Both the position numbers and the translations under genes were made by a program. Below are positions 1 through 1,077 of a stretch of 64,000 bases of DNA, piece after piece. The notes beneath the pieces are model-generated. The model saw only the letters and a program-made list of their open reading frames with translations. It was not told the DNA's origin and made no database searches. Source of the stretch: Escherichia coli (GTDB lineage Bacteria; Pseudomonadota; Gammaproteobacteria; Enterobacterales; Enterobacteriaceae); assembly GCF_003334255.1 (NCBI RefSeq), contig NZ_QOWU01000010.1. The stretch is one strand, 5' to 3'. Numbering within the stretch: the stretch's first letter is position 1; each line of letters starts with the position of its first letter.

Positions 1-590
1 CGCTGAAAGGTGCACGTCCGGTTCGGGGAGGAGAGGCAGGGAAATAGTCCGACTACGCCCTGCCTCTTACTCTACTCAGCACATGGCGGGGCTTCGTCTA
101 TGTGGCGTTCATCATTGATGTGTTTGCCGGATACATCGTGGGGTGGCGGGTCTCATCGTCCATGGAAACGACATTCGTGCTGGATGCACTGGAGCAGGCG
201 TTATGGGCCCGTCGACCGTCCGGCACGGTCCATCACAGTGATAAAGGTTCTCAGTATGTATCGCTGGCCTACACACAGCGGCTTAAGGAAGCCGGATTAC
301 TGGCATCAACAGGAAGTACAGGCGACTCGTATGACAACGCGATGGCGGAGAGCATCAATGGTCTTTACAAAGCGGAGGTAATACACCGTAAGAGCTGGAA
401 AAACCGTGCAGAAGTGGAACTGGCCACACTCACGTGGGTGGACTGGTATAACAATCGACGATTGCTGGAAAGGCTGGGCCATACTCCTCCGGCAGAAGCA
501 GAAAAAGCTTATTATGCTTCCATCGGAAACGATGATCTGGCAGCCTGAGTTCACAGATAAAACACTCTCCAGGAAACCCGGGGCGGTTCA
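1..590 (+). mobile_element. IS3-family insertion sequence, 3' portion (IS629/IS1203-like right end); element continues beyond window start
   Basis: ORF ending at 548 translates to the C-terminal DDE region of an IS3-family OrfB transposase (HHSDKGSQY ... [19 protein letters not shown]); sequence ...CCAGGAAACCCGGGGCGGTTCA ends at 590, which I recognise as an IS629-type terminal inverted repeat; the ydhS reading frame breaks at 590/591. Confidence 0.75.
48..548 (+). CDS. IS3-family transposase OrfB, C-terminal part (open frame begins after an in-frame TAG at 45..47; GTG at 102)
   Basis: Translation [14 protein letters not shown]...[56 protein letters not shown]...; DDE integrase-core motifs; stop TGA 546..548. 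Confidence 0.8.
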
Positions 591-1077
591 CCGTGGCGAT
601 CACCGCTAAATCAAACGTCTCGCTGGGTAAATCCTGATTTGTAGCGAGCATGACGCCAGCATTTGTAATTTGCAGATCGGTAACCTGGCATGATTCATAA
701 ACAGCCACTGCAAATTTTTGCTGTCGTGCCTGGTCTACTAGTCGTAAAAATTGATCGCGGAAATATTCGCCCAGCAGAATTCGCGGTAAAAACTGACGAT
801 CGTGCAAGGTTTCTTTTTTAACGCCATAACGCTGGAGATGGCTGTCTTCTTGCTTTTGTAGCCATTCGAGATACGTACAATAAATCGGCGGTATTTCAAT
901 ACTGGCAATATTTGCCAGCATCATTTTTGAGTTTTCCTCATCACTGTATGGCATCCCGACACCGGCCTCGTCAGCCTGCTCGAAGATAGAAATAGAAAGT
1001 GGAGTTTGTTGCTGTAGAAGCGAGAATAAGGTGTAGATCCCCGTAGGCCCGGCACCCACAATAGCAATTTTTTTCAT
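591..1077 (-). pseudogene. ydhS: ydhS 5' fragment (FAD/NAD(P)-binding protein YdhS, first ~162 codons) truncated by the IS insertion
   Basis: ATG at 1077 on minus strand, N-terminus MKKIAIVGAGPTGIYTLFSLLQ (Rossmann GxGxxG); frame runs into IS terminal repeat at 590 and then terminates within IS sequence at 430. Confidence 0.8.

Follow-up and report, generated by a model that had tools for sequence, protein, structure and literature searches.

A group II intron inside an IS629-type insertion sequence inside ydhS of a K-12-like Escherichia coli

The window analysed here is a stretch of 64,000 nucleotides of Escherichia coli DNA (assembly GCF_003334255.1, contig NZ_QOWU01000010.1). Close to its left edge the gene ydhS breaks off and foreign sequence takes over. 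This raises the question of what the foreign sequence is, how it came to be joined to ydhS, and what lies beyond the edge of the window. An earlier note, made from the letters alone, had read bases 1-590 as the 3’ end of an IS3-family element.

The left edge of this K-12-like genome holds a nested mobile element: a group II intron inside an IS629-type insertion sequence (IS), which in turn sits inside ydhS. The best explanation, in which we have high confidence, is that an IS629-family IS with an E.c.I4-type intron inserted in ydhS, duplicated the triplet CCG, and made ydhS a null allele. The components are all known kinds of element and IS::intron composites are common in E. coli, so that this is ordinary mobile-element biology. 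It has little significance beyond annotation, which should show a nested mobile element at the window edge and not a plain IS.

The features of the left edge are as follows, with coordinates in the window.

1-75, plus strand: 3’ end of a group II intron, probably of E.c.I4 type, comprising the end of domain V and then domain VI (Rfam RF00029)
76-590, plus strand: right-hand 515 bp of an IS629-family element (from the NF033516 match, the comparison of tandems and the directly read repeat)
76-548, plus strand: exon 2 of orfB, with its stop codon TGA at 546-548
about 566-590, plus strand: right inverted repeat, ending GGGGCGGTTCA, read directly
430-1077, minus strand: chimeric open reading frame of 215 aa, YdhS residues 1-162 followed by 53 IS-antisense residues, annotated as CUJ90256.1
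591-593, no strand: CCG, right-hand copy of a 3-bp duplication (ydhS nt 485-487), from the reciprocal junction in GCA_965136505.1
591-1077, minus strand: 5’ fragment of ydhS, codons 1-162 plus one base, with the ATG at 1077
1619-1692 and 1700-1773, minus strand: two tandem tRNA genes (tRNA-Val at this locus in K-12), between ydhR and ydhQ as in K-12

The insertion sequence and its intron

An IS3-family right end stops exactly at base 590 (...CCCGGGGCGGTTCA), which can be read directly in the window. The C-terminal 148 aa of orfB (102-548, plus strand) match the NCBIfam model NF033516, ‘IS3 family transposase’, with 165 bits against a cut-off of 160, covering positions 236-369 of the 369 in the profile. 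Pfam rve, rve_2 and rve_3 are on record for the called transposase gene. To this extent the earlier reading of bases 1-590 was sound: the element is of IS629/IS1203 type, and its terminal repeat ends at 590. It went wrong at bases 1-75, which are group II intron.

Most of the element lies upstream of the window. The chimeric 215-aa reading frame was used as a unique tag for finding a longer contig, and it led to one record, CUJ90256.1 on CYUC01000007.1 (130,057 bp) of assembly GCA_001299315.1. This contig equals the window exactly over the 11,077 bases compared. On it, the IS and intron form a tandem of 3,581 bp, from window position -2990 to 590, of which the intron takes up 2,270 nt and begins 2,195 bases upstream of the window. 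Within the window, the RF00029 match to bases 1-75 scores 37.9 bits, being cut at its 5’ side by the window edge. With the upstream bases of CYUC01000007.1 included (-11 to 75) it covers the full model, 1-77, and scores 64.9 bits against a gathering score of 40.

The exact limits of the intron follow from a comparison with intron-less IS copies (in the sequences below, a slash marks a junction). The intron is bounded by GTGTG...CTAC and runs GTGTGCCC...CTCTTACTCTAC. In the intron-less copies, exon 1 ends ...GATTTTACTTACG and exon 2 begins TCAGCACATGG, at window base 76. The 3’ splice site is therefore directly after base 75: ...CTCTTACTCTAC/TCAGC. Removing the intron gives ...TTTACTTACG/TCAGCACATGG, as found in the intron-less copies, which means that the host gene has been interrupted precisely. 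Given the intron match to 1-75 and these copies, the IS proper is 76-590 only. A first BLAST search with bases 1-1500 had placed the IS start at base 67; this was a chance match (TTACTCTAC versus TTACTTACG), and the intron-less copies put the exon at 76.

The intron is in sense orientation, just past the ADFTY motif that holds the first DDE aspartate (...ADFTY/V...). It encodes an LtrA protein, which matches TIGR04416 with 340.9 bits (cut-off 300) as well as Pfam RVT_1 and GIIM. At intron nt 331 there is a candidate EBS1, CGTAAG, which could pair with CTTACG at the end of exon 1; a search for an EBS2 gave no exact match. The transposase gene of the IS is thus split just after its first catalytic Asp codon, by a probable E.c.I4-type intron encoding this reverse transcriptase/maturase. 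Since the intron is in sense orientation, its splicing may restore the orfB mRNA, and it may also be able to retrohome into further IS3-family copies.

The combination is widespread. Window bases 1-140 are 100% identical to IS629::ltrA tandems in 1,312 of the 5,426 complete E. coli genomes. In strain M217 the tandem is annotated as three consecutive features, namely an IS629-family transposase fragment, ltrA (RT/maturase), and an IS3-family transposase fragment. The idea of a plain IS at the left edge does not survive this: RF00029, the M217 annotation and the intron-less copies agree on an IS::intron tandem of 3.6 kb.

The name E.c.I4 follows the nomenclature of Dai & Zimmerly. Its use here rests on the homing site and on the distribution among host genomes, which make this type the probable one. 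E.c.I4 homes at specific positions into the transposase genes of IS629, IS911, ISEc16 and ISEc31, and it is multi-copy in IAI39, 55989 and E24377A (Leclercq & Cordaux 2012, PMC3522654). The present intron is likewise found at a constant position in the transposase gene of an IS629-type element, and it too encodes an RT/maturase. Host genomes of E.c.I4 match it too: the genomes of IAI39 and O104:H4 (the 55989/O104:H4 lineage) contain matches of 99.8-100%.

The IS itself resembles IS629/IS1203, which belong to the IS3 group of the IS3 family and are found in E. coli and Shigella. IS3-family elements make their OrfAB transposase by -1 frameshifting, and they move by copy-out/paste-in. IS629 and IS1203 share with the present copy the terminal repeats TGAACCGCCCCGG..., the orfA/orfB layout with an ALIL frameshift pseudoknot, a DDE orfB and 3-bp duplications. 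The ALIL pseudoknot (RF01497, 121.5 bits) is in the IS 5’ part on CYUC01000007.1, upstream of the window. The terminal inverted repeats are imperfect and of the form TG...CA, with TGAACCGCCCCGGAAATCCTGGAGA on the left and, reverse-complemented, TGAACCGCCCCGGGTTTCCTGGAGA on the right. IS629-type copies elsewhere have target duplications of 3 bp, such as GGC on plasmid pDETEC45 and AAC in the O157 strain N8B7-2. Unlike plain IS629/IS1203, the present copy is split by its intron.

The two halves of the IS differ in their relatives. In CYUC01000007.1, the 5’ 796 bp are IS1203-like (98.7%), while the 3’ 515 bp are of a second variant. The latter, window 76-590, has 95.2% identity to IS1203 of strain 95NR1; in the tandems of M217 and 504838 the 3’ IS portion is the same sequence (100%). 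PGAP calls an identical 5’ part ‘IS3-like element IS629 family’, and names these copies both ‘IS629 family’ and ‘IS1203 family’; such names are a proxy for an isoform assignment.

The break in ydhS

On the other side of base 590, window bases 591-1500 are 100% identical to K-12 ydhS/ydhR in a BLAST search of the 5,426 complete E. coli genomes. More precisely, 591-1077 on the minus strand is K-12 ydhS nt 1-487 exactly. Of the 535 positions of the YdhS model NF007381, only 1-162 find a match, after which the reading frame continues into the IS for 53 codons. The earlier note had described ydhS as a minus-strand gene with its ATG at 1077, cut after codon 162 and running into the IS, and as intact in K-12-type references; all of this is confirmed.

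The other side of the insertion was found in a different assembly. The predicted product of the remaining 3’ part of ydhS (350 aa, starting MEAKVD) is on record in 42 contigs (54 blocks in the look-up index). These include CUK10892.1, from the same submission series as CYUC01. Through this product, contig CBCRYS010000043.1 of GCA_965136505.1 was located. There the 3’ junction of ydhS reads ...GACGTGACCCG/TGAACC, that is, ...gacgtgacCCG/TGAACC, with the IS left end adjoining ydhS nt 485-1605.

The uninterrupted K-12 gene has gacgtgac[CCG]tggcgatc, and the right junction in the window is GGTTCA/CCGtggcg. Taken together, the left junction of CBCRYS010000043.1, the right junction of the window and the K-12 sequence give a perfect 3-bp duplication, CCG, which thus combines the window with a different assembly. 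At least in this related genome, the original ydhS event is a simple insertion.

In mechanistic terms, an IS629-family IS very probably entered ydhS between nt 487 and 488, in the orientation opposite to ydhS, with the target CCG duplicated. It leaves a YdhS stub of 162 codons plus 53 IS-derived codons, which would make this a null allele, with YdhS function probably lost. The gene ydhS is non-essential.

Is this insertion peculiar to one strain, as had been proposed? The exact IS/ydhS junction occurs in none of the 5,426 complete E. coli genomes, and so far the proposal stands. The junction is however present at 100% identity in LYBB01000088.1 (GCA_002190285.1) and in its Logan run, SRR3825894, and the reciprocal junction is in the further assembly described above. 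Since the identical junction recurs in other public datasets, the ydhS break is no chance event. Being shared by at least one other strain, the insertion is better described as a rare lineage marker than as strain-specific in the strict sense. The contigs of LYBB01000088.1 and SRR3825894 both stop 20-22 nt into the IS, as is to be expected of a repeat; this lineage therefore has the IS end in more than one copy.

Four near-hits among the complete genomes (95NR1/95JB1, Res13-Lact-PEA14-20 and N8B7-2) are different events. Strain B2, the top BLAST match, was also considered as the same locus, but there the IS3 copy is outside ydhS, in the stretch from ydhR to tRNA-Val.

Other insertions at ydhS have been found as well. 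In O157:H7 N8B7-2 an IS629 has inserted independently at a distance of 20 bp, in the same orientation and with the duplication AAC. In O111 strain 95NR1, and also in 95JB1, an IS1203 stands beside ydhS with an adjacent deletion, in which the 3’ part of ydhS through ydhW is lost. AP027520.1 has an IS5-type insertion at ydhS nt 469-472. ydhS is thus a recurrent and tolerated IS target, hit independently by IS629, IS1203 and IS5, two of these within about 20 bp of the present site.

The plasmid-like DNA upstream

The second segment of ydhS and a target duplication had been expected upstream of position 1. For the lineage this is right, as CBCRYS010000043.1 has both the segment and CCG. Extending leftwards on CYUC01000007.1 did reveal the other IS end, but the 3’ part of ydhS and the duplication are missing there, and plasmid DNA is found instead. 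Immediately left of the tandem, ISEc23 (IS66 family) is truncated 60 bp inside its own terminus and abuts the IS left end. With GAT on its left side and CCG on its right, the tandem is not framed by a target duplication.

Going further left from ISEc23, the order is ISEc45, a resolvase, a Tn3-type TnpA, a PF02387 RepA, an exclusion protein and TacA/TacT. At least 17.7 kb of the 25.8 kb upstream of the window is plasmid-like. This backbone is common to several plasmid contigs and is IncI-complex-like; for the outermost 8 kb or so, a query with the TacT protein returned other plasmids only. The junction of ISEc23 and IS is absent from the complete E. coli genomes and from the PLSDB plasmids. CYUC01000007.1 is the only contig that spans the whole element, and its left flank is ISEc23 and plasmid, not ydhS with CCG, which counts against an intact simple insertion there.

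The same partners occur elsewhere. In several isolates from human stool, among them strain 504838 (8834-12417 of the locus), the same IS629::intron tandem is inside tnpC of ISEc23, next to ISEc45. The association of IS629 tandems with ISEc23 is thus a repeated one, with differing insertion points.

One way to arrive at such a flank is an IS-mediated adjacent deletion or rearrangement with loss of the ydhS 3’ part. Strains 95NR1/95JB1 provide a model, with an IS629/IS1203 adjoining ydhS after just such a loss, and the tandem ends in CYUC01000007.1 without a duplication would fit. The left flank, however, is plasmid DNA and not a more distant chromosomal gene, and in GCA_965136505.1 the 3’ part of ydhS is still there, directly beside the left end of the IS and with the matching CCG. 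We consider this explanation very improbable.

More can be learned from the tandem itself, which in CYUC01000007.1 is a mosaic. Two types can be distinguished: the A-type is the tandem of M217 and 504838, the B-type that of plasmid pDETEC45. At the informative sites, the IS 5’ part and the intron as far as element position 1496 agree with the B-type, and everything from 3079 to the end agrees with the A-type. This amounts to a single A/B switch, which is inside the intron. Complete tandems of either pure type occur in other sequences and have duplications of their own (GGC in the case of pDETEC45). The intron was also examined for a mosaic of SNPs, as a sign of a collapsed repeat; after discounting SNPs private to reference copies the single switch remains, and the pattern is non-discriminating.

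We lean, somewhat beyond an even chance, to a simple ydhS insertion (A-type, with the CCG duplication) that was joined in assembly to a B-type tandem within ISEc23 on a plasmid. The plasmid tandem would be 60 bp from the end of ISEc23; the near-identical 2.3-kb intron would have been collapsed, and scaffolding or gap filling would have joined both sides. A clean hybrid that switches within the shared intron is consistent with this, as are the complete parental tandems of M217, 504838 and pDETEC45. The other assemblies of the ydhS junction do break just inside the multi-copy IS end, and CYUC01000007.1 is a 130-kb draft contig with flanks that lack a duplication. Integrated plasmids are rare, which a priori also argues for a chimera.

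Two points speak against an assembly chimera. Most assemblers break at repeats of this kind instead of misjoining them, and CYUC01000007.1 is without Ns. In addition, its tandem has a private SNP at position 1194, missing from the other copies compared.

CBCRYS010000043.1 has its own ambiguity. In its bases 1-916 there are Ns at 7 sites of the IS 5’ part, 4 of which are A/B-variable. This suggests that both IS types are present in the GCA_965136505.1 genome and that reads of the two variants were merged, which would again favour a chimera.

The contig could also be correct. It would then represent a real plasmid-chromosome recombinant: the ydhS tandem of the chromosome and a tandem on a plasmid would have undergone a RecA-type crossover in the intron, and an IncI-complex-like plasmid, or part of one, would thereby have become integrated at ydhS in Hfr fashion. 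We rate this as possible, at roughly one chance in three. The single type switch has the correct geometry for it, with the tandems in direct orientation, and the contig is unbroken from the chromosome through the tandem into the plasmid-like DNA. Leclercq & Cordaux predicted in 2012 that IS/intron tandems of over 3 kb should serve as strong substrates in ectopic recombination (PMC3522654).

However, all four junctions and the hybrid would be expected from a scaffolding error as well, and the retrieved data do not discriminate between the two. A crossover should leave hybrid tandems at both ends. The reciprocal hybrid (an A-type 5’ part and a B-type 3’ part beside the last 60 bp of ISEc23, with the expected junction sequence GGTTCA/GATGGGCGTCTAAG) was not among the sequences retrieved, and the ISEc23/IS junction, as noted, is in no complete genome or PLSDB plasmid. 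The scaffolding artefact is favoured over the recombinant because of the draft contig, the multi-copy IS end in the lineage and the rarity of integrated plasmids. A draft contig that joins chromosome to plasmid via a repeat is not to be trusted for integration without long reads.

Were the link real, we would be dealing with a natural Hfr-like cointegrate, its crossover homology supplied by the intron rather than the IS. It would resemble Hfr-type integration (F with IS2, IS3 or gamma-delta) in that plasmid and chromosome are joined through a hybrid repeat present on both replicons. It would differ from the classical case in that the repeat is an IS::intron tandem and the plasmid is IncI-complex-like, not F; and the join itself may be an assembly artefact. 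A real link would also provide a concrete case of the ectopic recombination hazard that Leclercq & Cordaux predicted for IS/intron tandems (PMC3522654).

The rest of the window

To the right of the element the DNA is unremarkable. From base 591 to base 64000 the window is collinear with K-12 MG1655 and differs from it by 14 mismatches (99.98% identity). The claim that the insertion is the only accessory DNA in the window is thus essentially right. The only structural difference from MG1655 in this range is an extra REP-like unit of about 60 bp (TGTTAACGACTCATCCGCG...GTCGGATGCGG) at 12163-12222, in the ydhP-sodB intergenic region.

On the plus strand, bases 1492-1654 match the Rfam family ‘HPnc0260’ with 112 bits. 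HPnc0260 is a Helicobacter antisense RNA family whose model shares sequence with the antisense strand of tRNA-Val, and the 3’ part of the match overlaps that strand of the tRNA-Val gene (1619-1692). The match is very likely a model artefact and not a real sRNA.

Finally, there are internal tandem repeats of about 96 bp, some 90% identical to each other, at 39186-39706. They correspond to the rsxC repeat region of K-12.
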